Shown here: in pieces, positions 1 through 38,869 of the stretch
How positions within the stretch are numbered: position 1 is the stretch's first letter
How the letters are laid out: every line of letters starts with the position of its first letter
Assembly: GCA_031416075.1 (NCBI GenBank)
Contig: JANOSY010000008.1
Location: 1 to 60,413, forward strand
DNA: 60,413 nucleotides
From: Candidatus Tenderia sp.
GTDB taxonomy: Bacteria > Pseudomonadota > Gammaproteobacteria > Tenderiales > Tenderiaceae
Direction: 5' to 3'
Made by a program: the position numbers and the translations under genes
Notes under the pieces: model-generated
Databases searched by the model: none
Seen by the model: the letters and a program-made list of their open reading frames with translations, nothing else
Told to the model about the DNA's origin: nothing

Positions 1-2769
1 CGAAGCATATAATTCAGGGTCTTCGTCCATATTGATATTAATGATGTCACGGATTGCGTGTTCAACTTTTGCCGCTTTTGTTTCCTTGCGTTTTATTGCC
101 TTTACATTTTCAAAAAATTTGTCGTCAAGAATGGAAATAGGTTCAATTTTGGTCGTTATTCCTTTTGATTTCAGAAACTCATCTGTTACTTTCCTCAACT
201 TATCCGAAACACCTTTCATGCTCATTCGCCTGTCAAGGAAATGCTGCGATGCCAATGTGTTTATCTCTGCAAAGCGATTCAGGTCTTTCAAATAATTCAA
301 TGCTTCTTTTCTTGGAAACACATTGTCCATTGCTTTTGAAAACTTATTGAATGCCTCTGTAAAATCGTGTCGTATATCTTCATCGTAAAACAAATTGAAA
401 ATATCATCGGGATCGGAATACAAACTGATTCCCTGCCCTGTAAAAACTTTATTGAGTTCTTCGTGTGCCGATTTTAACTCTGCAAATAATTCTGCATTGT
501 CTTTTAAGCAACCTGTAATTTCCTGTTGTTCTTTTTCCCAATAAGCATCCAGCGCTTTTTTCATATGGTTGCCCATGCCTACATAATCTACTACAAAACC
601 AACTTGCTTTTGATCATCATACACACGATTCACACGGGCAATTGCCTGCAACAAATTATGATTCACAACTACTTTGTCTAAATACATCACCTGCTCAATG
701 GGCGCATCAAAGCCAGTCAGCAGCATGTCGCACACCACCAGAAAGGCGATGCCAGAATTAACTTTATCCGGATCATTAAAATCAAATGACTTGCAGAAGT
801 TGTCTACCGCACTCCCGGCCTTGGCCTGTTTGCGCGCCTCGGTAATATAGGCCGCTTCATTGGTGCCATCGCTGGAGATCACCACCGCCGCCTTTAAAAA
901 TCGCACTTTTCTGATCAGCTCAAAATCAGACATAGCGTCGGCCTCCAACGTGCGCACCGTATCGGCAAGCGCCTGATGAATGGCCTGCTGATAACGCACC
1001 GCCGCCAGCTTGGAGTGGCACACCACCTGCGCCTTAAAGCCGCTGGGGAAGATATGTTGCAGATAGTGCTTCACCATATCTTTGGCGATGGCGGCGATAC
1101 GCTGTTCGGCCTCCAGCAGGTCGCCGGTGGCACCGTATTTTTTCTTGATCGCCAGCAGCTCTTCCTCGCTGCGATCTTTAAACAGGTTTTCAAATCGGGT
1201 TTCAAAACCATGTTTGTCGTTCAGCGCGGTATCAGCGGTGCGTCCTTCATACAGAATCTGCAAGGTGGTGCCATCTTCCACCGCATCCATCAAACGGTAG
1301 GTGTCGATATAATCGCCAAAGCGCTTGATAGTCTTCTTCTCGCCGTGGCGCTCGGTAATCAGCGGCGTGCCGGTAAAGGCGATGCGCGCCGCATTGGGAA
1401 AGGCCTCAAAGATGTTATCGCCCAGGTCCGAGCCCTGGGTACGGTGCGCCTCGTCGATCATCAGCACAATGCGCGAAGAGTCATTCACCACGCCGAAGGT
1501 CTGGCTGGTGGGGATAGCCTGATAGGTGCCCAGCGCTTCGGCCACCTTCAGCGGCAGGCTCTGGTCGCACAGCTGGAACTTGTGCACCATCACCATATTG
1601 ATATCAGAACTATCCGTCGCCAGCTGCTCACGCAACGCCTTGCGGCTATCAATGCTGTGCACTCGGCCACCGATCAGGGTGGCGGTGGCGGCGAGTTGCT
1701 CTTCCAGGTCCACCCGGTCATTAATCAGCAGGATCTTGTAATCATTCAGGTCGCGAGAGACGCGCAGCATCCGCGCCACAAATACCATGGTCAGGCTCTT
1801 GCCGGAACCTTGCGTGTGCCAGACCACGCCGCTTTTTTCTTCGGCGGTTTTTCCATTGCGCAGCCGCTCGATGATCTTGTTGGCGGCACGAAACTGCTGA
1901 TAACGGCAGACCACCTTGATGCGCGGTCCACCATCGGTATCCATAAACACCGATGAGGTGCGCAGCATGCTCAGCAGATTGGCCTTATTGAGCATGCCGT
2001 TGATCAGCTGCTGTTGCTGATTCATCCCCTCGGCGACGCTATCGGGCTGCGGCCACTGGGTTTTCCACGGATAATAGTGCTCATCGCCGGAGGTGATGGT
2101 GCCGTAGTCCGCCTCCACACCACTGCTACGGATCAACAGCATGTTGCAATGGAATAGACGCGGCTCCCCCTCTTTCAGCCCCTGCTGCTGGGTCGCCTTG
2201 CGCTGATGGCTATAGCGCTGCAACTGCTCAAAGGCCTCGTTCATCGGGCTGGCGCAGGTCGGCCCACCCTTCTTGCACTCCACCACGATCAGCGGAATGC
2301 CATTCACGAACAGCACAATGTCGGGAATGATGAACTGCTTCACGCAACCCGGCGTGTCGATGAGGAATTGGTTGATGGCGAGAAAGTGGTTGTTGTCAGG
2401 ATTGGCAAAGTCGATCAGCCTCACCACCGGGTCCTGCTCACCAGTGGTTTCGTTCACATCCACCTGCGCCTTGAACAGCAGTTTCTGGATTGCCTCATTG
2501 GCCTCCAGCAACGTGCGATTGGGCTGGCGCAGAATCTGGTCCTGCAGGTCCTGCAGTTGTTTGGCCGTCAGCCATGGCCTCCCATCGGCAGTGGTGTTGA
2601 GTGCGGCGACGGATTTGGCAAACAGCTCCGGCAACAGCCACTGGCGGAAATTCAGCCGCTGGCTTTTACCGGGATCGGAGGGAATCTCCTGCCCCTGGTC
2701 GATAACATCCCAGCCTAAGCTTTGCAACTGCTGCAAGAAAGGCTGTTCGACTTCGGTGTATTCGCTCAT
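1..2769 (-). CDS. hsdR: Type I restriction endonuclease subunit R (3' end beyond the window)
   Basis: Absent from the ORF track because it has no stop in the window. Manual translation from ATG 2769 gives MSEYTEVEQPFLQQLQSLGW..., nuclease motif PDIVLFVNGIPLIVVECK, Walker A WHTQGSGKS, DEAH box, MLLTGFDAP and LLQAIARVNR. Frame checked at both ends. Lies downstream of hsdM/hsdS. Confidence 0.95.
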   Translation of the reverse strand, partial: MSEYTEVEQPFLQQLQSLGWDVIDQGQEIPSDPGKSQRLNFRQWLLPELFAKSVAALNTTADGRPWLTAKQLQDLQDQILRQPNRTLLEANEAIQKLLFKAQVDVNETTGEQDPVVRLIDFANPDNNHFLAINQFLIDTPGCVKQFIIPDIVLFVNGIPLIVVECKKGGPTCASPMNEAFEQLQRYSHQRKATQQQGLKEGEPRLFHCNMLLIRSSGVEADYGTITSGDEHYYPWKTQWPQPDSVAEGMNQQQQLINGMLNKANLLSMLRTSSVFMDTDGGPRIKVVCRYQQFRAANKIIERLRNGKTAEEKSGVVWHTQGSGKSLTMVFVARMLRVSRDLNDYKILLINDRVDLEEQLAATATLIGGRVHSIDSRKALREQLATDSSDINMVMVHKFQLCDQSLPLKVAEALGTYQAIPTSQTFGVVNDSSRIVLMIDEAHRTQGSDLGDNIFEAFPNAARIAFTGTPLITERHGEKKTIKRFGDYIDTYRLMDAVEDGTTLQILYEGRTADTALNDKHGFETRFENLFKDRSEEELLAIKKKYGATGDLLEAEQRIAAIAKDMVKHYLQHIFPSGFKAQVVCHSKLAAVRYQQAIHQALADTVRTLEADAMSDFELIRKVRFLKAAVVISSDGTNEAAYITEARKQAKAGSAVDNFCKSFDFNDPDKVNSGIAFLVVCDMLLTGFDAPIEQVMYLDKVVVNHNLLQAIARVNRVYDDQKQVGFVVDYVGMGNHMKKALDAYWEKEQQEITGCLKDNAELFAELKSAHEELNKVFTGQGISLYSDPDDIFNLFYDEDIRHDFTEAFNKFSKAMDNVFPRKEALNYLKDLNRFAEINTLASQHFLDRRMSMKGVSDKLRKVTDEFLKSKGITTKIEPISILDDKFFENVKAIKRKETKAAKVEHAIRDIININMDEDPELYAS

Positions 2770-2939
2770 TACTGAGCCTTAGGTGCATCTTCACCCACCT
2801 GAAACGGCTTGCCATCTTGCCAGACGACGGCGTACTGACCTAAGCGCTGCTTACGCTCAAGGCTTTTGCGCACGGCATCCTGCAACGCTTTGAGCATGGC
2901 TTGCGCCTGAGGCGAGGGCGGAACAGAAGTGATGTTCAT
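2769..2939 (-). CDS. Small hypothetical protein (56 aa, MNITSVPPSPQAQAMLKALQDAVRKSLERKQRLGQYAVVWQDGKP...)
   Basis: Read manually (below the track cutoff). ATGA overlap with the upstream gene and TAATG overlap with hsdR. Resembles small proteins often found beside zeta-toxin/AAA ATPases (from recall). Confidence 0.7.
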   Translation of the reverse strand: MNITSVPPSPQAQAMLKALQDAVRKSLERKQRLGQYAVVWQDGKPFQVGEDAPKAQ

Positions 2940-3187
2940 GTTGGGTACTTTATTTGTGCGTCAGGAATCCATCTCGCCTCAATGGTATCCAGTGAAAGAT
3001 CTGCTCCGCAGTCCCACTCAATGTAGTAGCCACCATTGTGAATGCGTGCGAACTCTCGACTATCTTTCAGTGGCGCAAAGGCTTCAGATTCAAAATAAGG
3101 ATTAACGTCAAACAGACCGGCTTTCCCTTCATCAGTTTTGATATAAAGTGTGCCATCTCCTTTCGGAACAACCTCTGTAATTCTCAT
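2936..3187 (-). CDS. DUF2442-family protein (putative antitoxin)
   Basis: 83 aa; ...F..LKD..EF......G..IEWDCGADLS pattern; coupled to the DUF4160 gene. Confidence 0.8.
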   Translation of the reverse strand: MRITEVVPKGDGTLYIKTDEGKAGLFDVNPYFESEAFAPLKDSREFARIHNGGYYIEWDCGADLSLDTIEARWIPDAQIKYPT

Positions 3188-3456
3188 TGATCCAGCCCTC
3201 GAATTGGAAAAGGTTTCTTGCCGTTAACCGCCAGATCCCAATCAGCAAATAAATCTTCTTGATGTATCTCGATCCACGCAACCACCAGCTTATGCTTTTT
3301 TGGCGGAAGCTCGCCCGCTAATACTGAGCCATCCTGAATAGAGTAAACGGCTGTGTGCCCCTGATATTCTGCATGGATGTGCGGCACATGATGCTTGTCG
3401 GTGTCATAAAAAAACATTCTGATCAGAATGCCAAAGAACATTGAAATTGTAGGCAC
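3184..3456 (-). CDS. DUF4160-family protein (putative toxin)
   Basis: MPTISMFFGILIRMF...HHVPHIHAEY...G.LP...KLVVAWIEIHQEDL..DW signature. Confidence 0.88.
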   Translation of the reverse strand: MPTISMFFGILIRMFFYDTDKHHVPHIHAEYQGHTAVYSIQDGSVLAGELPPKKHKLVVAWIEIHQEDLFADWDLAVNGKKPFPIRGLDQ

Positions 3457-3785
3457 TATAGACTCCCATGTTTGATTTTCAAATGTTGCGACAGCTGGGT
3501 TGCCGTAGCGGCGCGATCCAGATTATGCCCCCAGGGCAATTGTCCAACAGCCTGTTGGACAATTGCAAGATCGGGAAAGGCCGTGCGCAAATCATGCGCC
3601 AGCCGATCAATCACCTTGGCGCGCCAGATCTCGCTACCGATGCTCCAGTACAAACCCACCAGCTCACGGTTAACGGCGAGTGCTGCGCGCTGCTGGGCGG
3701 TGTGGATGCGCTGTTTCAGATCAAGCAGCCATTCGGCGTAACCGCTGGGCGGAGGCGTCAGGGATGCCGGGCGTTCGCTGCTCAT
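3456..3785 (-). pseudogene. Truncated, internally deleted DUF1016/YhcG N-terminal domain
   Basis: Y.EWLLDLKQRIHTAQQRAALAVNRELVGLYWSIG, VIDRLAHDLRTAFPD and QLPWGHN blocks are present, but intervening segments and the PD-(D/E)XK C-terminal domain are missing. Confidence 0.75.
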
Positions 3786-5056
3786 GCGCTTGCCTCCGTG
3801 TTGGGTTCGCTGAGCTGCACAGGGACTTTGCCGGTGAGCAGGTCGTGCATTAGGCCGGATTTTTGTTGGCGGAGTTTGGCGAGTTCTTGCCCCAATGAAT
3901 CAAGGCAACCATTGTGCGCAATAATCCTTGCCTCGATTCGCGCTTGCTCAATTGATGAAGGCAGCGCAACAGGAAACCGATTAAGTTGAGTGGAATTGAT
4001 GGATGCCAGATTGGTGGACTGCTTAGAGTTCAAAACAAAATACTTTTTCCCCATCTCCGACTGAGACCAAAATGCCAGAAAATAGGATCGCAGTTGACCA
4101 TCTCTAGGTCTGACGCGGAACACATGGTTTTGGTGAATGCACGGTTTTATCTCTTCCTGCCACACCGAACCACGTCCAAGCTTGTCGAAGTCACCGCCCT
4201 CATTCATGAGTACATCCCCGAATTGGAGCTGTAGTTTCTCAAGCTGAGTTCGGGACACACGGACGGTCTTCACCTCGGTGAGGTCAAGGTATCCATCCTG
4301 AACATTTGCCACTCGAAGGTAAGGCACCTCGATTTCATCGCTGATCTCGCCCTTCGCGCCCAGCGTGACACCGGATACGATTTCCGCCAAAACTCCAAGC
4401 AGTTTTACCTTCCACTCCTTCGGAATCCACCCAATCGGGGTGTGCTGGTACAGCTCTGGCGCTTGTTCGCGGGGTGGGCGCAGTTGGCCGTCGGCTGTGA
4501 CGCCACGGGTAAAGAGGTCGTGCATCAGCCCCGCTTTGATCTGCTGGTATTTTTCAATCAGCGCTTCGGTTTTTTCGATGGCTTGGTCGATGGTGCCTAA
4601 TATGAAACTTATCTTTTTCTGTTTTTCGTATGGAACCTCTGGGATCGGAAATATCTTGATGTCATTTGTTCCGATAGCCGAGAAGGTGGAACCTTGGCTG
4701 CGGCGGTGCAAGAAAGCTACATTTTGTTCTATTGAGTAACCCAAAAATCGTGTGTCAGAAATACCCGACTTCGCTTTGATCGCTCCCAATCCTCGACCGA
4801 TGCAATAACCTTGTTCGCCCCAATTCAATTTTCCAACTGGAGCCCGGACACTAATTAGTATCGAATCTGGTTTTGATGCTCGCAGAGGCTGAAGGCAATA
4901 GATTTCAGTAGATGGCGACTGCTTGCCAAACTCCGCACAACCTTGAAGAAAAGGCAGCCCGCGCTCATCAGTATTGCAGCTTGCAGAGTCAGGCGACTGA
5001 CCCATTGTGATGTCAGCAAGATCGCACAGTTGAAGAAATGTTTGAGGTTCACTCAT
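3782..5056 (-). CDS. hsdS: Type I R-M specificity subunit S
   Basis: Two TRDs with conserved coiled-coil spacers ([29 protein letters not shown]; [13 protein letters not shown]). True start is probably ATG 5056 overlapping the hsdM stop, not 5176. Confidence 0.93.
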
Positions 5057-7715
5057 ACCCCAGCTCCACCAAAAATGCCTGCAACTGTTGCGAGGCGGCA
5101 TCCCGCTCGGCCTCGATGGTCTTGGCGGTGACGGCGTATTTGCTCCACAGGTTTTCAATCGCCTTGATGCAAGCACGCTGGTCGGCGCGCAGGTAGGCGC
5201 GGTAGGTATCCATCAGCAACTGGCGCAGGCGCTCGATGATGACGGTGCGGGCTTCATCATTGGTGATTTTGGCACGGGCGCTTTGCACCAGTTCGTCGCG
5301 TTTGTCTGCTATGCCTTTGATGGTGGCGCGCAGGGTTTTGACTTCATCTTCCAGCGCCTTGTGGCGTTGCAGTTGCGCTTCGATCTGTTCGGCTTCGCGT
5401 TGCCATAGTTCGGCATCGCCCATGTTGTGGTCGCGCTTGCAGAGCTTGGCCATGCCTTTGGCCTCTTTGAGGCGGACCTTCAGCTCTTTGACCTGATCTG
5501 AATTCATCACGCCGGTGTCGTCTGCATCTTCAAACTCTTCTTCATCGGCGGCGGCGAACAGAGCTTGCAGTTCGGCGAGACGGGTTTGGGCATCTTCCTG
5601 TTCTTTCAATATTTCGGGAAACTGGCTTTGCAGTATCTCTTCGTCCGGGATCAGCTCCGGCCCCCAGCCGCTGGCGGCGATGGATTTGAAGTCGGCCTTG
5701 AGCAGATCGACATAGTTGGCAAAGGCACCGCGCACTTGGAACGGGGTGAGCAGATTCTGTCCTTGCTTACCTTCTTGGGCAAGCGCCTGTTCGATGCTGG
5801 CCAGCAAGCTGCTGCGCATGACGTAAACGTTGCGCGGTTTCGTCTCTTGAAGCTTATCTATTTCGGGGGCATCCGGTGCCAGTGCCTCGACGATGGGCAA
5901 GTTGGCCTGCCACCAGGCTTGCAGTATCTGCATGAATTGCGCGTGGCGGGTAGTGACGCTTTGGTGGCTACTCACAAAGTCGGCGATGTCGCGTTTGCTG
6001 GCGAGCACCGGGGCGAAGTCGAGATAGGCGTAGGTCGGGTTAGCGGCTTTATCGCGTAACCCGACATCTCCGAGCGCGTCTGATTCTGCGAATTGTCGGG
6101 TTACGCCCAAAAGCGGGCTAACCCGACCTACGGGAAGGCGGGGCACAAAGCAGCTTTCGCGCAAGCCGGCGTAGTTCTGCCAGAAAGGCGCTAGCGCATC
6201 AACCTCACAGACCGGCACACCGCCGTGCAGATGGGCGCGCACGTCGTGCGGCTCGGGTGGCGGGGCGTTGTCCACGTAGCGGCGGATGTTGCAGTTGTAC
6301 TCTTCGGCCACGATCTCGGCTTTGGGCACCAGGCGGGCGTAGCCGGGGAGTTCTCCGCCGTTGCGGTAGGCGTAGATGATCTTGTCGATATCTTCCGGGC
6401 GCAGGTGGTTTTGCGCCTTGCCTTCGCGGTATTCGCGGTCGGCATTGATGAAGAGCACATGGTCGCGCTGGGCTGCACCGGCCTTGTTCATCACCAGGAT
6501 GCAGGCCGGGATGCCGGTGCCATAAAAGAGATTGCCGGGCAGGCCGATGATCGCTTCCAGATAACCGTGCTCGATAAAGTGTTTACGCGCCTCGCGCTCT
6601 TCGCCGCCACGGAACAGCACGCCGTGGGGCATGACGGTGGCCATGCGGCCAGTGTGTTTGAGCACGGCCAGCATATGCTGGACAAACATCAGGTCGGCCT
6701 TTTTGCCCTTCTCCGGCATCATCACCGGGAAGCGCCCGGGAAATTTCAAATTATTCTTGATGTAGTTCTGGCTGAAGGGAGGATTAGCCACCACGCGGTC
6801 GAAGCGTTTGAGTTCGTTGGTGTCGTCCAGGTGTTGCGGTTCACGCAGGGTGTCTCCCTGTTCAATTTTGGCGTGAGAGATACCGTGCAGCAGCATGTTC
6901 ATTTTGCAGATGGACCAGGTGGTGCCCATCTTCTCCTGACCGAAGAGCGCCAGTTCATCGGCGCTACCGCCTTTTTCGCGCAGGTAGTCGCGCATCTGGA
7001 TCAACATGCCGCCGGAGCCGACGGTGGGGTCGTAGACACTCATGCCTTCTTCGGGGTTACAGATTTCTACGCAGATACGCACCACTTCGGCGGGGGTGTA
7101 AAACTCGCCGGCCTTTTTACCGGCGGAGTCGGCAAAGTATTTAATCAGCCATTCGTAGGCCGCACCGAGCAGGTCGGGGAATTCAAAGTCGCTGTCCTTG
7201 AGCGGGATCTTTTCGAAGTTCTGCACGAAGTCGGCCAGGGTGTCGTCATCCAGAGTGCGCTGGCCGATCTTGCGGTTGAAGTTGATGCCTTTGAGCACGT
7301 CCTGCAGGGCGTCCGGGTTGGCATCTTCGATCGCCTCCAGCGCTTTGTTCAAGGTGGTGCCGACGTTTTCTTTGACGTGTTTCAATGCCGGGCGTTGAAT
7401 GAGTTTTTTCTCGCCATCCACGACCACCTCCTCCACCCAACCCTGATTCCAGCGGGCGCGAGGCGGCACAAAGAAGTATTTGCCGGAGTAGTGATCTGAA
7501 TCTTTCAGCGCTTCTTCAATATCGGCGGGTGACATGCCCTGGGCGGCGAACTGCTTGCGCAGCTCGGCCTGGCGCTGATCGAACAGATCGCTGGCCCGTT
7601 TCAGGAACAACATGCCGAAGATGTATTCCTTGTATTCACTGGCATCCATGCTGCCGCGCAGGTCGTCGCAGGCGGTGAGCAGCAGGTTTTCGAGACGGGA
7701 TAACGTCAGTTTCAT
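5049..7715 (-). CDS. hsdM: Type I R-M N6-adenine methyltransferase subunit M (long form)
   Basis: [17 protein letters not shown] (motif I), VANPPF (motif IV), PHGVLFRGG, and a C-terminal helical extension. Confidence 0.96.
6030..6131. repeat. GTAG-type REP doublet (REPIN-like) inserted in frame in hsdM
   Basis: Perfect 15-bp terminal IR GTAGGTCGGGTTAGC/GCTAACCCGACCTAC and inner IR GCGTAACCCGACA/TGTCGGGTTACGC. Length 102 bp = 34 codons. Confidence 0.85.
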
Positions 7716-14528: not shown

Positions 14529-14643
14529 GATTAAATATTAAAAACATACCCCAATCGAAACAGGGAATGTTATCGAATGGCGCACTATAAACGATGCACC
14601 CCGTTTTAGATGGTTTTTCGCCTTAAGTAGGGGGAGCGAGCCG

Positions 14644-15093
14644 CTAACAAACCACTCCACCTCCTGAAACAATTTGGCGCAAACAGTTAGCGATAGGCTG
14701 ATTTTCGTGCTGGCGAGACACCTCATCAAGTGCCGAATTCAAGTAGTTGTCATACCCCTTGCTCACCTCATCCTGAATCTGTCGACCACGCTTGGTAATA
14801 ACGGCATAAACACCGCGTTTATCGTTGGGACAGACATCTCGGATCGTATAATCATTACGCTCCATTCGTTCAACCAACCGTGTCACGGAACTTTGATTCA
14901 AGCCGAGTTGACTGGCCAACTCCTGCATACGCAGTTCCGAGTTTGGTGCCTCCGCAAGTAACTGCAGCGCCCGATACTCGGACACACCTATTCCATGTAT
15001 CCGATACAGATCCTTCGCTACCTGGTTCTCCACCGATTCAAAGATATTTCTCATCTGCTTCCACGCTGACTGGAGGTTCATAGCTGTTCTCAC
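14644..15093 (-). CDS. MarR-family transcriptional regulator
   Basis: LRMQELASQLGLNQSSVTRLVERME...CPNDKRGVYAVITKRG winged helix; divergent from the biosynthetic operon. Confidence 0.92.
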   Translation of the reverse strand: MRTAMNLQSAWKQMRNIFESVENQVAKDLYRIHGIGVSEYRALQLLAEAPNSELRMQELASQLGLNQSSVTRLVERMERNDYTIRDVCPNDKRGVYAVITKRGRQIQDEVSKGYDNYLNSALDEVSRQHENQPIANCLRQIVSGGGVVC

Positions 15094-15131
15094 ATAATTG
15101 GGAGTGTTATCACTACCCTAGTCTATATTAG

Positions 15132-15149
15132 TACTTGCACATACATATA
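15132..15149. promoter_or_regulatory. Putative MarR operator next to marR
   Basis: TACTTGCACATACATATA matches the operator copy at 15417-15434 at 15/18 positions. Confidence 0.6.
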
Positions 15150-15362
15150 TGTGCCAGATATTAGATCTTAATGCCATAAAAAAATCACGGATTACGTAGA
15201 GGTCCGCGATAAATACATTAAAAATGTGACTTCACTAGCCTCCTTCGATCAGCACATCCGCTCTTGTCTGGATCGAAAATTATTCTATTTTTTATGGGAT
15301 TAACTCCGTATCAACGCCCGCTGTAACCATTTGGCAAGGAAGCTGACACAAATAATTCATAG

Positions 15363-15434
15363 TACATGTATGCGCAAGCATGTTGACGGGATGCAATATA
15401 CTGACTAGAGTTATATTGCTTGCGCATACATGTA
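15363..15434 (+). promoter_or_regulatory. Sigma70 promoter bracketed by a perfect 18-bp inverted operator pair
   Basis: TACATGTATGCGCAAGCA (15363-15380) and its exact reverse complement (15417-15434) flank TTGACG-N17-TAGAGT (15383-15411). Confidence 0.75.
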
Positions 15435-15465
15435 AATTGCTATCAGTCTTCTAATGGGGAACTTT

Positions 15466-16971
15466 ATGAAATTGCCATTACTGCTCAACTCACTTAGCAA
15501 CAGTGCAGCCCATTTTCCCGACAACGTGGCTATCGTCACTGACACTACCGCCTGGAACTACAAGCAGCTTTGGTCTCGAATAGCCCGATTTGAATCGGCA
15601 CTTACAGAGATTGCACTGCCCGCTCATGTGGCCGTAGCGGTCACTGCCCACAAGACAGTTGATACCCTGGCACTGATGCTTGCCTTGGGTAAGCAAGGCC
15701 ATACGCCACTCGCGGTCTCCCCCACCCTAGGCTCGATGGTCAAACCGATGATGTACAACACAGCCAGAGTATATTGCGAACTGGCAGCCGCAAATATCTC
15801 TGGCTGGCCAGTGGTTAACCTGGTGGCCCCCGACAAACGGCAAGCCAATGCTATACCTGACGCCGATCCAGCCAACACTTACCCACTCATGCTGACCACT
15901 TCGGGTTCGACCGGCATTCCCAAGGTGGTCAAGCTTCGCGCCGAAGGGGTCAGCGCTTTCTTTAACTGGGGGGCAGGGTATTTCCAGCTGACACGGGGCA
16001 GCCGCGTCCTTAGCTATGCCCCACTGAACTTCGATCTAAGCCTGCTCGAGATCTGGACGCCGTTAGCAAAAGGGGCCACGGTCATTCTGGCCGATACCGC
16101 TCGCGTCACACAGACCGACTACCTGCAGGCACTGATACGCCATAGTCGGCCAGACCTCATCCAAGCCGTTCCGATGTTCTACTCCCTACTCTGTCCAGAC
16201 TCAAACAGCTACAACGGGGTCATGGACGAGGTTCGCCACGTGGTATTCACCGGAGATACTACGCCCCAAAAGTTACGCGAACGGGTAGCAACTAGGTTTC
16301 CTCAGGCTACTTTTCACAACGTCTATGGCTGCACTGAAACCAACAACAGCTTTGTGTATTCGGCAGATGCCCAAACAATCGTTCGGCACGAGCGGCTGCC
16401 ATTAGGACGACCGATCAATGGGGCCTCCTACCGCATCATGACCGATGACGGTGTGGAACTAGATGGTGCTGGCGAAGGTGAGTTACATACGTCGACGCCA
16501 TTTCTTGCCCACGGCTACACAGATCCTAAACTGACAGCCAACGTGTTCTACACCGAGTATGGCAGTCATAGCCCCTATTATCGAACGGGCGACCGAGTCG
16601 TGCGTGATGAGCTTGGCCAACTGACCCTGGTTGGTCGCAACGATTTTATTGTCAAAGTTCGCGGCGTGCGCACCAACACTTTGGAGATCGAACAGATTCT
16701 GGCGAAGATGCCTACCGTCAAAAACGCTGTGGTGGTTCCTGTGAATGACGAGACGTGCGGTGCCGTCTTGCACGCCGTGGTTGAGCCAATGCAGGACCAA
16801 ATACCCGACGGCCTGACCATGCGCATGTTCTGCGCTCAACATCTGCCTCAGACCACCATTCCCCGACACTTTCATCTACATAAAAATCCATTGCCCACGA
16901 CCTCGACCGGTAAAACGGATCGAAACTCCATCGCCTTATTCATCCAACCACAAAGGAATGAACCAGCATGA
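15466..16971 (+). CDS. Stand-alone amino-acid adenylation enzyme (PltF/RedM-like AMP-binding protein)
   Basis: TTSGSTGIPK (A3), APLNFDLS (A4), NVYGCTETN (A5), YRTGD (A7), GRNDFIVKVRG (A8), LPTTSTGKTDR (A10). Alternative start 15454. Confidence 0.88.
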   Translation: MKLPLLLNSLSNSAAHFPDNVAIVTDTTAWNYKQLWSRIARFESALTEIALPAHVAVAVTAHKTVDTLALMLALGKQGHTPLAVSPTLGSMVKPMMYNTARVYCELAAANISGWPVVNLVAPDKRQANAIPDADPANTYPLMLTTSGSTGIPKVVKLRAEGVSAFFNWGAGYFQLTRGSRVLSYAPLNFDLSLLEIWTPLAKGATVILADTARVTQTDYLQALIRHSRPDLIQAVPMFYSLLCPDSNSYNGVMDEVRHVVFTGDTTPQKLRERVATRFPQATFHNVYGCTETNNSFVYSADAQTIVRHERLPLGRPINGASYRIMTDDGVELDGAGEGELHTSTPFLAHGYTDPKLTANVFYTEYGSHSPYYRTGDRVVRDELGQLTLVGRNDFIVKVRGVRTNTLEIEQILAKMPTVKNAVVVPVNDETCGAVLHAVVEPMQDQIPDGLTMRMFCAQHLPQTTIPRHFHLHKNPLPTTSTGKTDRNSIALFIQPQRNEPA

Positions 16972-17270
16972 ATAATGAACAGCGCATCAAGACTTACATC
17001 TGCGAAAAACTGGCACCGGATATCGATCCGATAACGTTGCCAACCGATATCGATCTGCTATCCAGTGGCGTCATCGATAGCCTCTCTCTGGTACGTCTTG
17101 TTGTCTGGATTGAGGAGGAGTAGGACATTCTGATGGGCGATATAGACATTGCACCGGAGGATTTCAGTACGGTCGAGATGATCAACGTTTTTATTAAACG
17201 CCACAGAATCTCCGGCGTCGCCAAAACCAGGTACGTCAACAACGAAGTTGAGTTTCTTTTACAACCTTAA
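16968..17270 (+). pseudogene. Acyl/peptidyl carrier protein interrupted by an in-frame TAG at 17121-17123
   Basis: Manual translation: MNNEQRIKTYICEKL...DLLSSGVIDSLSLVRLVVWIEEE*DILMGDIDIAPEDFSTVEMINVFI. Contains the GxxDSL Ppant motif; carrier-protein similarity continues past the stop; ATGA overlap with the adenylation gene. Confidence 0.85.
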
Positions 17271-17290
17271 ACCCATAAAGGAAAACCACC

Positions 17291-17668
17291 GTGTTCATAC
17301 GTAAACGTAACGAAATAGAAGGTATTCAATGGGGCAACGGCACCAGCCATAGAATGCTAACCGAAAAAGATGGCATGGGCTTCACGGTCGCGCATACCGT
17401 GGTTAATGCCGGCTCAGAGTCACGCCTGCAGTATCGACGTCATCTTGAGGCCTGCTACTGTATCTCCGGACGTGGCAACGTGATCTCGGCCGACGGCAGC
17501 GAACATCACGTTATCGAGCCGGGCTACATCTATGTTTTGGACAAACACTACCCCCACATATTACAGGCTGATGCTGATCAGGACTTGCACCTGATCAGCG
17601 TTTTCAATCCGCCGCTGACGGAGGAAGAAAATCATCAGCTAAGCGCGGATGGTTTTTCCCAATACTGA
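17291..17668 (+). CDS. ectC: Ectoine synthase-like cupin (orphan EctC family)
   Basis: W.NGTSHRMLTEKDGMGFT..HT....G....LQY..HLEACYCISG.G and Y.LDKH..H.L......HLISVFNPPL EctC signatures; no ectA/ectB in the window. Confidence 0.85.
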   Translation: MFIRKRNEIEGIQWGNGTSHRMLTEKDGMGFTVAHTVVNAGSESRLQYRRHLEACYCISGRGNVISADGSEHHVIEPGYIYVLDKHYPHILQADADQDLHLISVFNPPLTEEENHQLSADGFSQY

Positions 17669-17708
17669 GTTAAGCATACTACCCAGCCACCATTTATAAG
17701 GACGAATT

Positions 17709-19559
17709 ATGTATCACCATGATAAACAGATCGCCCAACAAGTCCGTGCTTCGATCGACTCCATTGCACACACCTTGGAGACCAAGAATTTTGCCGAGAA
17801 CAATTTCCCGCGTGAGAAGTGGCAGGAGGTATCCAGCACGGGGGGCTTCCGACGTGCCTGTAATGCCGCGTCCAAACGTGACGCAATCCTGTCAACCATG
17901 ATCGCGCTAGAACGGCTCGGCGAAATCTGCAAAGATTCTGGACTAACATTCTCTGTCGCCACTCACCTGGCCAGCACGATTACTGCCCTCGACAAATTCG
18001 GCAGTCCTGAGATCAAGTCACGATATATGGATGAATTGGTCTCTGGCAAGCTGATCGGTGCCCATGCCATCAGTGAACCCAATGCTGGGTCAGACGTCCT
18101 GAGCATGACCACCACCGCTCACGAAGAGGGTGACGACTTTGTCATCAATGGCCACAAGGCCTTCGTTACTAACGGCTCAGTGGCAGATGTGATAGTCGTC
18201 TATGCCAAGACCAATGAGGCAGCAACCGCCAACTGTGTTTCCGCCTTTCTGGTAGAAACTCGCACGCCAGGTGTGCATCTCGGCCCCACCATAGAGAAGA
18301 TCGGCTTGAGTACATCACCACTATGCGAGCTAACGCTCAAAAATTGCCGAGTACCGAAAAAAAATATGATTGGCCGACACGGTGCCGGATTTTTCGTTCT
18401 TAGCTACGTGATGCAGCGGGAAATTCTATACTCGTTCATCATCGGCGTCGGCGAGATGCATCAGCGCCTTACACGCTGCGTGAGTTACGCCAACACCCGA
18501 CACAAATTCGGATCGCCTATTGGCTCCTTCCAGTCGATTGCCAACAAGATCGCCGAAATGAAGATTAAATACGAATTGAGCCGACGGTGGCTATATCACG
18601 TTGCCGAACTCATGATCGCCAATAAAGACGTAACCAGCGAAGTTGCCATTGCCAAGGTATTTGTCAGCGAAAATGCCCTGGCCACCGCCATTGATGCACT
18701 GCATATTCATGGCGGGTACGGTTATGTCGCCTCGAATGGTTTAGGCACCGAGGTCTGCAACGCGCTAGCAGGCCCCATCTATTCGGGGACCAACGACATC
18801 CAACGCGGTCGAATTGCGGCCCTGCTGGGCATCAACCAGAATAAAACGAATCCAACCGCCAACAATACAAATCACAAAATTGTTCGCTCTGAGGTGCGCA
18901 CCTTTCGCAAGATGGATGTCGAGCCGACCCACAGCGAACTGTTTGACTTCATGCATGACGATGTGCAGAGCTTCGTCAACACCGCCCTGGCTGGTAAAAC
19001 GCTGGACGAGCGCGGGATAGCAGTGAAGCTCTACTACGCCGTGCGCGACAGTATCGCTTACGAAGTGTTTGATACTGACATTAGCGAGAAGGGGTTACGT
19101 GCAAGCCAGATCGTCAAGGAGCGCCGGGGATTCTGCCTCCACAAGGCCCTACTCTATGCTGCTGCCTGCCGATCACAAGGCCTAGCCTGCCGCGTGGTCG
19201 CCAGCCGTGTGACCAATCACATTGCCACTCAGGAATTACGGAGTTTAGTCGGCGGTGACATGTTCCTGCACTGGTACAACGAGGTAAATGTAGGCGACAC
19301 TTGGCTACAGGTCTCACCGGTGTTCAATAAGCTACTGTGCAAACTGTACGGCATTGAACCGCTGGAGTTTGATGGTTACAACAGCGCTATTCATCAACTA
19401 TTCAACGGGGAGTTATCAATGAACTACCTCGACGATCCAATAGTATTCACCGACCCCAACTACCATGAGCTGATCGAACTAATGAACACCCATCACCCAA
19501 AGATGATCATGCCGGGAGGCCGAATCCCACAAGCCAACGCCTTCAGAGCAACACTGTAA
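17709..19559 (+). CDS. Acyl-CoA/prolyl-carrier dehydrogenase-like domain fused to a transglutaminase-like domain
   Basis: N-terminal part: AISEPNAGSD, NGHKAFVTNG, FGSPIGSFQSI, IHGGYGY, IYSGTNDIQR. C-terminal ~220 aa: LYYAVRDSI.Y, GFCLHKALLYAAACR.QG, HWYNEV...W. Confidence 0.85.
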   Translation: MYHHDKQIAQQVRASIDSIAHTLETKNFAENNFPREKWQEVSSTGGFRRACNAASKRDAILSTMIALERLGEICKDSGLTFSVATHLASTITALDKFGSPEIKSRYMDELVSGKLIGAHAISEPNAGSDVLSMTTTAHEEGDDFVINGHKAFVTNGSVADVIVVYAKTNEAATANCVSAFLVETRTPGVHLGPTIEKIGLSTSPLCELTLKNCRVPKKNMIGRHGAGFFVLSYVMQREILYSFIIGVGEMHQRLTRCVSYANTRHKFGSPIGSFQSIANKIAEMKIKYELSRRWLYHVAELMIANKDVTSEVAIAKVFVSENALATAIDALHIHGGYGYVASNGLGTEVCNALAGPIYSGTNDIQRGRIAALLGINQNKTNPTANNTNHKIVRSEVRTFRKMDVEPTHSELFDFMHDDVQSFVNTALAGKTLDERGIAVKLYYAVRDSIAYEVFDTDISEKGLRASQIVKERRGFCLHKALLYAAACRSQGLACRVVASRVTNHIATQELRSLVGGDMFLHWYNEVNVGDTWLQVSPVFNKLLCKLYGIEPLEFDGYNSAIHQLFNGELSMNYLDDPIVFTDPNYHELIELMNTHHPKMIMPGGRIPQANAFRATL

Positions 19560-19594
19560 TTTCAAATTAATACGCGCCACTAGAGGTGAGTACA

Positions 19595-20200
19595 ATGACC
19601 AAAAAAATTACCATCTACACAGATTACGTCTGCCCCTATTGCCTGTTGGCAGAACAGATCATCGAAAATGTAACCCAGGGGCAAGACATCGAAATCCACT
19701 GGCAACCTTTTGAACTGCGGCCTGAGCCAGTGCCAACCCTGCGAGTCGAAGACCCTTATCTGCCACGTGTTTGGAAACAGTCGGTCTATCCGATGGCCGC
19801 GCGTCTGGGTGTGCCGATCAAATTGCCGGCCATCTCGCCACAACCGCGCACCGGCAAAGCCTTCGAAGTCTTCGCGATGGCGGATGAGCAAGGGCTGGGA
19901 CATCCGTTTTCGATGCGCGCCATGAGGGCCTTTTTCCAGGAGGAGAAGGATCTTGGCAACACAGAAGTTCTGGCCGACCTGGGGGCCGACGTGGGACTCG
20001 AACGCGAGGCTGTGCTGAACGCCCTGGCCAACAGTACTTACAGGGAGCGCCATCAAGAGGCGCTACGTCATGCCCACGAAGAGATGGGGATCACGTCTGT
20101 TCCCACCATCATTGTGGGCGATCAACTCTTCCGTGGAGTGCCATCGTACGATGCACTGCGAAGGGCAATCGACCACGCTGTGAGCGATACCGCTCTGTAA
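19595..20200 (+). CDS. DsbA/FrnE-family thiol oxidoreductase
   Basis: DYVCPYC, WQPFELRP, GITSVPT. Confidence 0.88.
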   Translation: MTKKITIYTDYVCPYCLLAEQIIENVTQGQDIEIHWQPFELRPEPVPTLRVEDPYLPRVWKQSVYPMAARLGVPIKLPAISPQPRTGKAFEVFAMADEQGLGHPFSMRAMRAFFQEEKDLGNTEVLADLGADVGLEREAVLNALANSTYRERHQEALRHAHEEMGITSVPTIIVGDQLFRGVPSYDALRRAIDHAVSDTAL

Positions 20201-20237
20201 GACTGCTCATTTAAACAACACTTAAGGAGAAAGAGAA

Positions 20238-20561
20238 ATGGAAAGCTGGCTATATCTTGGAATCGCTGTAATTTTTGAAATTGCAGTGGCAATCTCTGCC
20301 GGAAACGCGAAGGGATTTACTCATCTTTGGTGGACCATCGCTACCCTCGTCAGTGGTGCAATCGCTACTTATTTTCTTAGTCTCGCGCTTCTCGTTTTCG
20401 ACGTTGGCATTGGCTACTCAATCTGGACATCCGTTGCAGGCGTCGGGATTGTCATCTTGGGGGCGATGTTCTTCGGAGAACGACTGACCATGAAAAAGAC
20501 CTACGGAATTATTCTCGTCATCGGAGGCGTCATTGGCCTACGTCTCAGTGGAGCGGCATGA
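20238..20561 (+). CDS. SMR/DMT small multidrug exporter subunit
   Basis: 107 aa, four hydrophobic helices, W.YL.IA..FEI with membrane Glu, GIGYSIW. Confidence 0.88.
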   Translation: MESWLYLGIAVIFEIAVAISAGNAKGFTHLWWTIATLVSGAIATYFLSLALLVFDVGIGYSIWTSVAGVGIVILGAMFFGERLTMKKTYGIILVIGGVIGLRLSGAA

Positions 20562-20625
20562 AAGACTGCTAAAACACCCATCATATTCACCGTGTAATCA
20601 GTGTCCAACCTAACAGGAGATAGTT

Positions 20626-21000
20626 ATGACAACAGTAGCGGAAAAACAGACCAGCAATGAGCAAGCGTGGACCATGTTACTGCTCGCCGGGGGCTTTGAA
20701 ATCGTTTACGCACTCAGCGTAGCAGGCAGCGAAGCATTTACCGTGATGAGTTGGTCGATCTCTGCCGTGATTTTTTTCCTGCTCACCCTATTTGCACTGA
20801 GCGTTGCCCTGCGAACGATCGATGTCGGGATTGGGTACGCAGTCTGGGCGGGGATTGGTTCGATAGGTTCGGTGGTTTTTGGCAGCATACTGCTTGATCA
20901 ATCGCTCACATCAGTTCAAACGGTCTGGTTAGCAGTCATCATCATCGGTGTCATTTGGTTGAAGCTCGCCAGCAGCGACAAACTCCAAACCGATAGCTAA
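20626..21000 (+). CDS. SMR/DMT small multidrug exporter subunit (paired)
   Basis: W..LLLAGGFEI, IDVGIGYAVWAGIG. Confidence 0.88.
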   Translation: MTTVAEKQTSNEQAWTMLLLAGGFEIVYALSVAGSEAFTVMSWSISAVIFFLLTLFALSVALRTIDVGIGYAVWAGIGSIGSVVFGSILLDQSLTSVQTVWLAVIIIGVIWLKLASSDKLQTDS

Positions 21001-21139
21001 AACCTTGCTCTTCAACAAACCTATATCAACGCGAGAAAAAATACCTGACTACAGAAGCAACGCTTAATTTTTTCGCCTACACAAATCGCCCGTTTCTCAC
21101 GCTCTTGTGTAGGGTGATACAACCAGCCAGGAGACACCC

Positions 21140-21622
21140 ATGTCTAATACCTTTCCTGCCCACATCAACCAGATCATGGAGGAGGTAGTCGCCTACTCTA
21201 TAGAACATGTTCATGATGGTGGAGTCCCCTTCACCGCCTTTGTCGTAAGTGCCACAGGTATGATCCTGGGGCGCGGAGTCAACCGCGTTCTGGAACATCA
21301 TGATCCAACTGCACATGCAGAGGTCGAGGCGATCAGAGATGCCTGCCGTAGCGTCGGGACACACAGTTTGCCAGGGACAACACTCCTGGCGTCAGGCGAA
21401 CCCTGCGCTATGTGCTATTTGAATACCCTATACGCTGGCATCAACGAGGTGGTCTATGCGGTCGACCGGGACGACGCCGCCAAAGCAGGCTTCGATTACC
21501 GTGGATCGTATCGAATGCTGGCGCACTTCCCTGACCAGTGGCCAATGAACGTACACAAGTACGCTACTAGCCAAGCACTCGAACCTTTCAATCTCTGGAG
21601 AAAAAAAAGGAGTTTCCAATGA
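21140..21622 (+). CDS. Zn-dependent nucleoside/guanine deaminase (CDA fold)
   Basis: DPTAHAEVEAIR and EPCAMC zinc motifs. Confidence 0.9.
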   Translation: MSNTFPAHINQIMEEVVAYSIEHVHDGGVPFTAFVVSATGMILGRGVNRVLEHHDPTAHAEVEAIRDACRSVGTHSLPGTTLLASGEPCAMCYLNTLYAGINEVVYAVDRDDAAKAGFDYRGSYRMLAHFPDQWPMNVHKYATSQALEPFNLWRKKRSFQ

Positions 21623-22431
21623 GCACAATACAAACCCCGGTTCAAATCGAAAGCAGTGCCGCAGCGCTGTTCCGCCCCGACGGCTGGAACCGCTTGATCC
21701 GCATCGGTGCTGTGGTCCCCCACGCCGATGTTGGCCCGGAATCGGAGTTACAAGCGATGGCTACCAATAAGATCACCATTCACGGCAGCCGCCTCTATTT
21801 CTCCGCCATGCGTGCCGGTGGTGAGATGGATGAAAAAATTCCCCACGACCCGGTGGCTATGTTCGCCCTGCCACCCTACGTTGACGAAGCCGTGGAAAGC
21901 CTGGCAGCTTCGCCATTGGATGCCCTGTGTTTGGCGTTCACCAGCTCAGCCTACAAACATGGCCCCGATGGGGAGCGAGCACTGATTGAACGTCTACGCC
22001 CACGATCTCGAGACATCCCGATCGTTTCGACATGCCTGTCAGCGGAACGGGCATTGACACAATTAAACACTAAACGGCTAGCAATCATTAACCCCCCCTG
22101 GTTCGATGCCGACCTGGACGGGCTAGGGGCGGACTATTTCGAACAAGCGGGCTATCGCGTGGTTCACCATGCCCCGTGCGGGCTACAGAGCGGTCAAAAG
22201 TACATCACACCACAAAGCCTATACAACTGGGTCGACAAAGTAGTGGCCGAATCAAATGCGGACACTGTGTTTGTAGCTGGCAACAGTCAACGTTCAGTGG
22301 GCATTATCGACGCCGTGGAAAAGACCCTCGGTATATCAATGATCACCAGCAATCAGGTCATTCTCTGGGATGCACTACGCTCGATCAATGCCAGCGTTGA
22401 CATTAAGGGTTATGGAAAATTATTCAGCTGA
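21619..22431 (+). CDS. Maleate cis-trans isomerase/Asp-Glu racemase superfamily protein
   Basis: RIGAVVPHAD...ESE, A..LAASPLD....AFTSS, ITSNQVILW; ATGA overlap with the deaminase. Confidence 0.78.
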   Translation: MSTIQTPVQIESSAAALFRPDGWNRLIRIGAVVPHADVGPESELQAMATNKITIHGSRLYFSAMRAGGEMDEKIPHDPVAMFALPPYVDEAVESLAASPLDALCLAFTSSAYKHGPDGERALIERLRPRSRDIPIVSTCLSAERALTQLNTKRLAIINPPWFDADLDGLGADYFEQAGYRVVHHAPCGLQSGQKYITPQSLYNWVDKVVAESNADTVFVAGNSQRSVGIIDAVEKTLGISMITSNQVILWDALRSINASVDIKGYGKLFS

Positions 22432-22605
22432 CTCTTCCATTTATTCATAAAAAATTCACCGCTCAGGCATCCGGACCACCATGTTCGGACACTGGATATA
22501 GATACATAATAGTGATATCGATAGCGATAATGTCAATTTCGTTAAACAGATTCAAGAATGGTGATCCCGTTTTTAGCGCATTGGTGAACAGCAGGGAAAA
22601 AGAGG

Positions 22606-23645
<1,040 letters not shown>

Positions 23646-27684: not shown

Positions 27685-29961
<2,277 letters not shown>

Positions 29962-38066: not shown

Positions 38067-38869
38067 TTTTGATTCATGCCTGAATCCACTGGACGCGGTA
38101 TGGAGCCGCTCATGACATTATCAAACCAAAGGTTGGTAATGTAATAACGAATCTGGCAATCATTACCATAATTACTACGTGACCGTAACTGTAAATAATA
38201 CTCTGTTCCCGTACCCACCCAGCGCAATTTTAGTCGGTTCCCCATAGCATTGTAGTATGCATGGTGATATTTAACTCTTTTTTTAAAATTCAAAAAATTA
38301 AAAAATATTCCTTTTGGGTTAAATGTATTCATCGCAATTGCATGCATAAGTGCATACCGACCTGTCCCCTTATTTCCCGCGCCCGCCATCACTTCAAATG
38401 CGTGACAACCGCTGAGTGGACCAGTGATCGTGTGCCACACTCCATCAGCAGGGATAGTCGGCTGATTTTCCAACGCTACGCCAATCCGGCCTTGCGAGCG
38501 GACTACTCCATCAACATCCAGATCCCATTCAGGGTCTTTTTTATTAATCCCCACTTTTTTATCCGGAGTCATCACCAAAACAGGCGCTGCCTTTTTGTCT
38601 TCATCCAACTTATTAAAAATCAGCTTATTTTGATCACGATCGTAACTGATCGACCATAGCGGACTGTCTGGGGAGCTGTTTCTAAGAAAACTCACCAAAG
38701 TATCATGAACGCCAATAGAGGATATTTCAAAGCCATTTTCAAGAGACTTGTCAAATCCCTCATCAATTGTATTGAGTGATGAGTCGATGAGATCCCCAAA
38801 CTGATCTGCAGAAGGCAGAGCGCCCTCACGAAAAAAATTTTTTAATGTGCTTCTGTTTCGCTTAGCCAC
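38063..38869 (-). CDS. eCIS short tail-fibre/adhesin (Afp13-like N-terminus)
   Basis: RSTLKNFF..GALPS..QFGDLIDS.LN shoulder motif and a VGIN...P...LDVDG fibre repeat. Confidence 0.72.
   Translation of the reverse strand: MAKRNRSTLKNFFREGALPSADQFGDLIDSSLNTIDEGFDKSLENGFEISSIGVHDTLVSFLRNSSPDSPLWSISYDRDQNKLIFNKLDEDKKAAPVLVMTPDKKVGINKKDPEWDLDVDGVVRSQGRIGVALENQPTIPADGVWHTITGPLSGCHAFEVMAGAGNKGTGRYALMHAIAMNTFNPKGIFFNFLNFKKRVKYHHAYYNAMGNRLKLRWVGTGTEYYLQLRSRSNYGNDCQIRYYITNLWFDNVMSGSIPRPVDSGMNQK

Follow-up and report, generated by a model that had tools for sequence, protein, structure and literature searches.

The stretch of DNA analysed here (hereafter the window) comprises 60,413 nucleotides of contig JANOSY010000008.1 from Candidatus Tenderia sp., and carries at positions 14644–22431 a compact cassette in which a MarR-family gene diverges from nine co-oriented open reading frames (ORFs) on the plus strand. 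On balance, this cassette probably encodes a thiotemplated pathway that turns L-glutamine into a 2-aminopyrrole acid, of the kind that opens showdomycin biosynthesis, joined to a different set of downstream genes. An earlier note on this DNA, made from the sequence alone, had described nine co-oriented genes and a marR gene at these coordinates, with which our ORF listing and Pfam and NCBIfam scans agree, and the motifs that it had singled out all occur in the translations, within NFDLSLLEIW, TTSTGKTDR, GVIDSLSL and PIYSGTND. Its description of a carrier-protein pathway that has no polyketide synthase or non-ribosomal peptide synthetase (NRPS) module is likewise borne out by family scans of the conserved gene set. 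The acyl-CoA dehydrogenase (ACAD) and the transglutaminase (TGase) that it named are both present, as a single fused ORF. The features of the cassette are as follows.

14644–15093, minus strand: MarR-family regulator (Pfam MarR/MarR_2), divergent from the operon
15135–15431, no strand: putative intergenic control region with three copies of TTGCRCATACAT
15454–16971, plus strand: stand-alone adenylating enzyme (A), 505 amino acids (Pfam AMP-binding and AMP-binding_C)
16968–17270, plus strand: PP-binding carrier protein (Pfam), 100 codons, with Ser38 in GVIDSLSL and an in-frame TAG at codon 52
17291–17668, plus strand: solitary EctC-type cupin, 125 amino acids (Pfam Ectoine_synth, 6.7e-33)
17709–19559, plus strand: ACAD–TGase fusion, 616 amino acids in one ORF (three ACAD Pfam domains and Transglut_core)
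17709–18833, plus strand: ACAD domain of the fusion, residues 1–375, of the AnaB/PigA/RedW-like carrier-dependent dehydrogenase type
18939–19559, plus strand: transglutaminase-like Cys-His domain of the fusion, residues about 411–616 (Pfam Transglut_core, 1.8e-13)
19586–20200, plus strand: DsbA-family thioredoxin-fold protein with a CPYC motif (Pfam DSBA, 5.6e-28)
20238–20561, plus strand: small multidrug resistance (SMR) transporter 1 (Pfam Multi_Drug_Res)
20626–21000, plus strand: SMR transporter 2 (Pfam Multi_Drug_Res; NCBIfam SugE, 60.6 bits, under the 126 cut-off)
21140–21622, plus strand: zinc deaminase of the CMP/dCMP type, cytidine-deaminase fold (Pfam dCMP_cyt_deam_1)
21619–22431, plus strand: Amdase/maleate-isomerase/EutA-like protein of the Asp/Glu-racemase superfamily (Pfam Amdase, 1.1e-12)

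The gene content, the families, the conserved catalytic residues and the conservation of the gene set across phyla are observed directly. In G003, a genome of the same genus, a single 7.87-kb BLASTN block corresponds to window positions 14640–22495 at 93.7% identity, and beyond the block, which ends at 22495, the flanks of the two genomes are unrelated. In G003 one flank holds RdgC with an ABC transporter, and the opposite flank a helix-turn-helix/Usp protein with a P-type ATPase; the window has phosphoglucomutase on one side and, on the other, two transposase remnants that lie outside the cassette.

22619–23236, minus strand: transposase remnant, DDE_Tnp_1 fragment (Pfam)
23191–23604, plus strand: transposase remnant, rve fragment (Pfam)

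The conserved synteny for which the earlier note had proposed a search was found: gene content and order were kept in G003, in all six loci recovered by a profile scan of metagenome contigs (four complete, two cut by contig ends; fusion proteins 52–80% identical to that of the window) and in a replicon of Vibrio sp. THAF191d (L039), which carries the entire cassette. Furthermore, a plasmid of Streptomyces sp. 2P-4 encodes all ten window families at 39–64% identity (MarR, A, carrier, EctC-like, ACAD, TGase-like, Amdase-like, DsbA-family, two SMR and deaminase proteins), with transposases adjacent; its Amdase-like protein is annotated as 'maleate cis-trans isomerase'. The cassette is sparsely distributed among genomes. 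The fused ACAD–TGase gene was found only in G000 and G003 among 41 relatives, and again only in these two in an even sample of the class (400 scored genomes). The other 20 genomes of that sample that matched the TGase domain had a different, mostly stand-alone family (32–39% identity), and the 18 short loci taken from them gave no EctC-like or carrier match, one weak ACAD-like match (L030) and one weak A-like match each in L026 and L029. A single-protein search of genome contigs returned only the G003 contig, and 28 of the best 120 protein matches were fused ACAD–TGase proteins, those with names coming from Modicisalibacter, Alteromonas, Grimontia and Vibrio. By its sequence, then, the block is a discrete, mobile and widely conserved cassette, with conservation beyond what chance would give. 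We found no description in the literature of a cassette that unites an EctC-like enzyme, a transglutaminase, an ACAD and a carrier protein, and literature searches likewise brought up nothing on SdmF or SdmG or on the aminopyrrole acid by name.

The A enzyme is of an amino-acid type, as the earlier note had it: by its families and its PDB relatives (NRPS A domains, DltA and PltF) it is PltF/DltA-like, and it scores 231.7 bits against the NCBIfam amino-acid adenylation domain, under the 317.4 cut-off. From an ungapped alignment to PltF (6o6e) we read its pocket code as DLLQVTVNSK, the final Lys being that of TGKTDR. The same alignment gives D-L-L-Y-L-A-L-V-C for PltF versus D-L-L-Q-V-T-V-N-S for the window enzyme, so that six of the nine compared positions differ, each by a change to a smaller or polar residue, and the A enzyme that partners the ACAD lacks a proline-type pocket. 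The metagenome loci share the code DLLQVT[VIL][DN]SK with Vibrio, Streptomyces xanthii, Burkholderia stagnalis and Streptomyces sp. 2P-4, and this conservation across phyla speaks for a single shared substrate that is polar or cationic and is not proline. The eighth position, which is Asp in seven of the nine loci with a readable pocket and Asn in the other two, would suit an amidinium group.

The cupin passes the NCBIfam model for ectoine synthase, NF009806 (135.5 bits versus a cut-off of 128), and shares with canonical EctC the cupin fold and the Glu/Tyr/His metal ligands (E53, Y81 and H89). Compared with P. lautus EctC (5onn), it also keeps the equivalents of W21, S23, R25, T40, Y52, H55 and F106. 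Unlike canonical EctC, however, it has Ala34 at the position of Asn-38, a residue that binds the substrate carboxylate and has been assigned to a proton relay in the account of EctC given in part of PMC6344544. The six residues that contact N-gamma-acetyl-diaminobutyrate are thus not all kept. The replacement is typical of a subfamily: the 120 close homologues listed for the orthologue in Streptomyces sp. 2P-4 all have Cys, Ala or Thr at the Asn-38 position, and 117 of them have Ser at the Cys-104 position. The cassette cupin also differs from canonical EctC in being solitary. It does not lie in an ect cluster, it always stands beside A, carrier and ACAD genes, and a PF06339 search of the 99.98%-complete genome found no other EctC-type gene, with ectA and ectB not searched for. 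An alternative activity is on record for an EctC. H. elongata EctC reversibly converts L-glutamine to ADPC, in full 5-amino-3,4-dihydro-2H-pyrrole-2-carboxylate, with the equilibrium toward glutamine, according to the portion of PMC5924519 that treats this reaction; ADPC is the same compound as 2-amino-1-pyrroline-5-carboxylate. ATP-driven loading and oxidation of the product would, we infer, pull this equilibrium forward.

Wherever they carry a name, the proteins among these 120 listed homologues are labelled 'ectoine synthase'; the set is large and mostly actinobacterial, and includes Streptomyces, Kitasatospora, Kribbella, Micrococcus, Brevibacterium, Corynebacterium and other genera. Judged by their residues, proteins with Cys, Ala or Thr at the Asn-38 position may not be ectoine makers, and genome-mining tallies of ectoine producers may be inflated. 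The subfamily signature is simple, consisting of one of these three residues at the Asn-38 position together with Ser at the Cys-104 position.

The ACAD domain has as its nearest solved relatives AnaB (4irn, 9.8e-73), 6cxt and PigA (5zw0), which have the YSGT/FSGT motif in common with it, and falls below the NCBIfam equivalog cut-offs for PigA (314.4 bits versus 500) and RedW (286.9 bits versus 650). An alignment of the fusion proteins shows that E238 and YSGT are invariant, and E238 aligns with the AnaB residue that we take to be the catalytic base. In the TGase-like domain C476, H521, N503 and H504 are invariant, with C476 and H521 present in 21 fused and 46 domain sequences. The predicted structure of the 616-amino-acid fusion was moderate (pLDDT, the predicted local distance difference test score, of 73.7, with linker residues 336–407 below 50), so we searched for related folds with the model of the TGase domain alone (pLDDT 92.4). 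Its Foldseek matches, with TM scores of 0.4–0.49, were arylamine N-acyltransferases and cysteine proteases of the TGase-like kind, enzymes that form acyl-Cys intermediates from thioesters. A PDB sequence search with the TGase part returned no match.

The fusion is a variable feature. The TGase-like protein is encoded by a separate neighbouring gene in L016, S. xanthii, B. stagnalis and Streptomyces sp. 2P-4, and stand-alone homologues of the domain also exist (92 short proteins), several of them on contigs whose recorded length equals that of contigs bearing ACAD homologues. In L016, the most distant of the metagenome loci, the ACAD and TGase-like parts (1379–3105) do not share a frame and are separated by about 50 bases, which suggests either a split form or a frameshift, the other gammaproteobacterial loci being fused. 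TGase-like homologues at 34–40% identity also occur on plasmids of Rhodococcus (L043) and Polaromonas (L044), where there is no EctC-like gene and the neighbours are CoA ligases, PaaI thioesterases and dehydrogenases, an arrangement that hints that the family acts on thioesters more generally.

The context that ties these families together came from plasmids. We inspected six of the 94 plasmid records that matched the TGase domain, and four of the six, from Vibrio sp. THAF191d, S. xanthii, B. stagnalis and Streptomyces sp. 2P-4, contained a five-gene core encoding A, carrier, EctC-like, ACAD and TGase-like proteins. In B. stagnalis the core proteins are 38–59% identical to those of the window, and the genes directly after them encode a PF04227 protein of the pseudouridine-5'-phosphate-glycosidase type (3.8e-94), a haloacid dehalogenase (HAD) hydrolase, a major facilitator superfamily transporter, an Amdase-like protein and a deaminase. 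Read from its genes, this arrangement has the logic of a YeiN-type C-nucleoside cluster. Showdomycin is such a C-nucleoside, and its biosynthesis is set out in a section of PMC8724604: the cyclase SdmE converts L-glutamine to 2-amino-1-pyrroline-5-carboxylate; SdmC activates the cyclised product and loads it onto the carrier SdmD; the carrier-bound intermediate is oxidised and then hydrolysed to the free acid; the C-glycosynthase SdmA ribosylates the free acid and the phosphatase SdmB dephosphorylates it; and the closing decarboxylation, deamination and redox steps are non-enzymatic and yield the maleimide nucleoside.

The five core families appear to map one to one onto the five published steps, in number and in order, when matched by step description rather than by Sdm sequences. 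Conserved and next to one another, the genes for the A enzyme, the carrier, the ACAD and the TGase-like protein make up the combination of a stand-alone A enzyme, a carrier, an oxidising enzyme and a candidate hydrolysing enzyme, and the homologous core in B. stagnalis is linked to a PF04227 glycosidase and a HAD phosphatase. The window cassette differs from the showdomycin cluster of Streptomyces showdoensis (BGC0001778) in that it has neither an SdmA-type C-glycosidase nor an SdmB-type phosphatase, its ACAD and TGase-like proteins are fused, it adds the DsbA-like CPYC protein, the SMR pair and MarR, and its hosts are Gammaproteobacteria together with a Streptomyces plasmid that carries the same gene set. 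There was no S. showdoensis protein among the TGase-like, ACAD and EctC-like matches listed or in their clusters. A search for PF04227 found no match in the 99.98%-complete genome (four of 14 control genomes were positive) and none in the complete cassettes of L011, L012, L014, L015, Vibrio and Streptomyces sp. 2P-4. The glycosidase-free gene set, being kept across two phyla, is a unit in its own right rather than a decayed showdomycin cluster. The earlier note had recognised no characterised cluster with this combination of genes; this holds for the cassette as a whole, whereas the core probably matches the early steps of showdomycin biosynthesis.

From homology and the published chemistry we infer the first four steps of a pathway. 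The EctC-type cupin would cyclodehydrate L-glutamine to 2-amino-1-pyrroline-5-carboxylate. The A enzyme would activate this cyclic amidine amino acid and load it onto Ser38 of the carrier, where the ACAD domain would oxidise the loaded amidine to 2-amino-1H-pyrrole-5-carboxyl-S-carrier. Finally, the fused TGase-like Cys-His domain would accept the acyl group and release the free acid by hydrolysis. That acid, 2-amino-1H-pyrrole-5-carboxylic acid, reportedly autoxidises to a maleimide imine.

What would follow is more speculative. The deaminase has B. subtilis guanine deaminase as its nearest solved relative (1wkq, 1.4e-22), its zinc motifs HAEVEAI and PCAMC are invariant, and homologues are present in the B. 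stagnalis and Streptomyces clusters. The Amdase-like gene, which is translationally coupled to the deaminase gene, has homologues at 24% identity in B. stagnalis and at 56% in Streptomyces sp. 2P-4; its product scores 61 bits against NCBIfam EutA, under the 318 cut-off, has weak PDB matches to arylmalonate decarboxylase and maleate isomerase (E 0.006), and returned nothing beyond its family name in an Atlas search. Conceivably, the guanine-deaminase-like enzyme deaminates the free aminopyrrole acid, and the Amdase-like protein, oxygen or both bring about decarboxylation or tautomerisation, the outcome being a small, thiol-reactive heterocycle of the maleimide type. Because no C-glycosidase is found in cassette or genome, the aminopyrrole- or maleimide-type product would not be ribosylated. 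The two SMR proteins, which are about 33% identical to each other and both keep the membrane Glu (FEI/FEV), probably form a heterodimeric exporter and would export the product. The DsbA-like protein, which has an orthologue at 53% identity in Streptomyces sp. 2P-4, has a CPYC motif that is invariant in eight loci, and this protein and MarR could serve redox handling or self-protection, and control. Taken to its end, this line of thought makes the ten-gene set, which aquatic Gammaproteobacteria have in common with Streptomyces plasmids, a system devoted to producing a free electrophile of the maleimide type, in essence showdomycin's base lacking the ribose. Decarboxylation and deamination would then be catalysed by the Cys-less Amdase-like enzyme and the guanine-deaminase-like enzyme, and the CPYC protein, the SMR pair and an electrophile-sensing MarR would give self-protection. 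We put this forward tentatively, as a possibility with the odds against it. If true, it would explain what many of the 'solitary EctC-type' genes now labelled ectoine synthase do, a large share of them. Should the product be a small heterocycle that reacts with thiols, it would make an antibiotic or diffusible signal of unusually minimal form, paired with its own protection system.

Several points weigh against the glutamine-to-aminopyrrole route. Sequence does not distinguish hydrolysis of the acyl group from its transfer to an amine, and in the fused forms the position of the canonical triad Asp in the TGase-like domain (WLQVSP) is Ser or Ala. The pocket positions of the A enzyme were assigned to the ten-residue code through what we take to be the GrsA numbering, and SdmE is only reportedly an EctC homologue. 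At the positions of the catalytic Cys residues the Amdase-like protein has Phe107 and Gly221, which are conserved in seven loci, although the alignment here is weak. The showdomycin pathway itself is called 'proposed' and 'incompletely understood' in the section of PMC8724604 devoted to it, and since the decarboxylation and deamination are described there as non-enzymatic, any role for the deaminase or the Amdase-like protein is conjectural.

The carrier gene, moreover, is broken in this genome. Its nonsense codon, TAG at 17121–17123, removes the C-terminal half of the protein; G003 has TAC there, and the frame is open in all seven relatives L010–L016. Position 17123 is C in contigs from two other studies; it is G in a contig from the run that probably gave rise to the window (word depth 26), so that this reading is not an independent one. 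A phosphopantetheinyl transferase domain also gave a single match in the genome, in an open frame of 137 amino acids that we take to be AcpS-sized. Given the nonsense codon and this single match, the pathway is probably inactive, and the cassette silent, in this genome; intact versions of the cassette exist in close strains.

The alternative that best survives retains the core and changes the last step, with the TGase-like domain transferring the aminopyrrole-carbonyl group to a polyamine, an amino acid or a second monomer to give an aminopyrrole or pyrrolinone carboxamide. As of 2020, AdmF (andrimid) and CtaJ (closthioamide) were the only known thiotemplate TGases, to go by an excerpt of PMC7898593, in which both are transferases that form amide or thioamide bonds from carrier-bound substrates. 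The window domain resembles them as a TGase-core Cys-His enzyme on a carrier-bound thioester, a likeness drawn by description, and differs in its fusion to the ACAD, in the unconserved triad Asp and in being probably hydrolytic. Arylamine N-acyltransferases among the nearest folds would also fit a transfer, as would the direct channelling that the ACAD fusion suggests. On the other hand, the cassette has no amine-supplying gene, an orthologous TGase-like gene sits in the C-nucleoside-type cluster of B. stagnalis, and the showdomycin route, as outlined in that section of PMC8724604, releases a free acid by hydrolysis. Together these make the amide-forming variant unlikely, if not negligibly so.

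The earlier note had proposed that proline or a plain cyclic amino acid is converted to a pyrrolyl-S-carrier, amidated onto a diamino acid by the TGase and cyclised by the EctC-like enzyme to an ectoine-like amidine, which would be 2-substituted. In one respect, that a cyclic amino acid is loaded and oxidised, it was very probably right. There is more to be said for the model: the cassette resembles the PltF/PltL/PltE, RedM/O/W, PigI/G/A and AnaC/D/B systems in its stand-alone A enzyme, its small carrier and an ACAD with YSGT for YEGT that is closest to prolyl-carrier dehydrogenases; D, L and L of the A4 motif are identical to those of PltF; AdmF and CtaJ set a precedent for bond formation on carrier-bound substrates in the excerpt cited above (PMC7898593); and the cupin passes the ectoine-synthase cut-off. 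However, a prolyl substrate is unlikely for a pocket in which two thirds of the compared PltF positions have changed, to polar residues (Q, T, N/D and S) that are conserved across phyla. The prolyl-carrier systems also have no counterpart to the obligatory EctC-type cyclase and TGase-like release domain, and the PigA and RedW scores fall short. Cyclisation of an N-acyl-diamino acid is hard to reconcile with a cupin that has lost the carboxylate-binding Asn-38 and has no second EctC-type gene beside it in the genome (by PF06339, ectA and ectB lying outside the search), and in B. stagnalis this core supplies a cluster that has a C-glycosidase. Thus the pathway probably departs from the proposed one in its substrate, in the sequence of its steps and in what the EctC-like enzyme does, and we regard the model as improbable. 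Two other substrates, a tetrahydropyrimidine (the ectoine ring) on the carrier and capreomycidine-like compounds, were set aside, as the evidence from B. stagnalis and the review favours a five-membered amidine.

It is more improbable still that the cassette is non-biosynthetic and serves to break down or detoxify a cyclic amidine, or a compound resembling an osmolyte, that has been imported, with MarR and the SMR proteins as a resistance unit. The EctC reaction is reversible (PMC5924519, in the portion already cited), EutA-like and deaminase families are found in catabolic pathways, and distant TGase-like homologues lie in clusters with CoA ligases and thioesterases; but an ATP-dependent A enzyme, a dedicated carrier and a carrier-type dehydrogenase form an assembly signature, and the cassette has neither an importer nor downstream genes of central metabolism. 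Least credible of all, despite a core homologous to that of B. stagnalis, is that the cassette makes showdomycin or another C-nucleoside through a glycosidase encoded elsewhere, as PF04227 is missing from the genome and from the complete cassettes in other hosts.

If the aminopyrrole route holds, a module known from one Streptomyces C-nucleoside becomes a portable unit, and what follows it downstream takes at least three forms: B. stagnalis has C-ribosylation, S. xanthii a TrpD/F/C/A-like set, and the window the export and thiol-redox set. In the S. xanthii plasmid (NZ_CP061282, 4718–12056) the core is interleaved with genes for TrpD-like (Glycos_transf_3), TrpA-like, TrpF-like and TrpC-like proteins, an arrangement that suggests use of the aminopyrrole acid as an anthranilate surrogate for a fused heterocycle. 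Separately, an 11-gene antiSMASH region in an Endozoicomonas metagenome-assembled genome is listed as 60% similar to BGC0001778 in Extended Data Table 3 of PMC13739741; showdomycin-like matches in Gammaproteobacteria are thus already on record there, without comment.

The cassette may carry its own control. The marR gene adjoins the operon in L010, L011, L012, L014, L015, Vibrio (L039) and Streptomyces sp. 2P-4, whose MarR is 45% identical to that of the window. Between marR and the A gene lie three copies of TTGCRCATACAT, at 15135–15146 (plus), 15366–15377 (minus) and 15420–15431 (plus), the last two forming an inverted pair that flanks a promoter-like site at 15383–15411. These are the sole three matches in the window, a count that is not significant by itself, as 13 of 100 shuffles reach three; the copies sit, however, in conserved columns of a six-locus alignment. 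We regard the repeats as putative operators, and their conservation around a promoter-like site makes the MarR control proposed earlier plausible.

Two other systems lie in the window on the minus strand. At 27685–50583, an island of low GC content (31–46% versus 52–58% in its flanks) encodes an extracellular contractile injection system, with Pvc16_N, sheath, two gp19 tube proteins, CIS_tube, a VgrG-like spike, gp25, a CIS tape-measure protein and an AAA ATPase, as well as large ORFs that have no Pfam match at 27685–29961, 35619–38066, 38063–38869 and 38862–42977. Positions 1–7715 hold a type I restriction-modification system made up of HsdR, which is open at the window edge, HsdS and HsdM.

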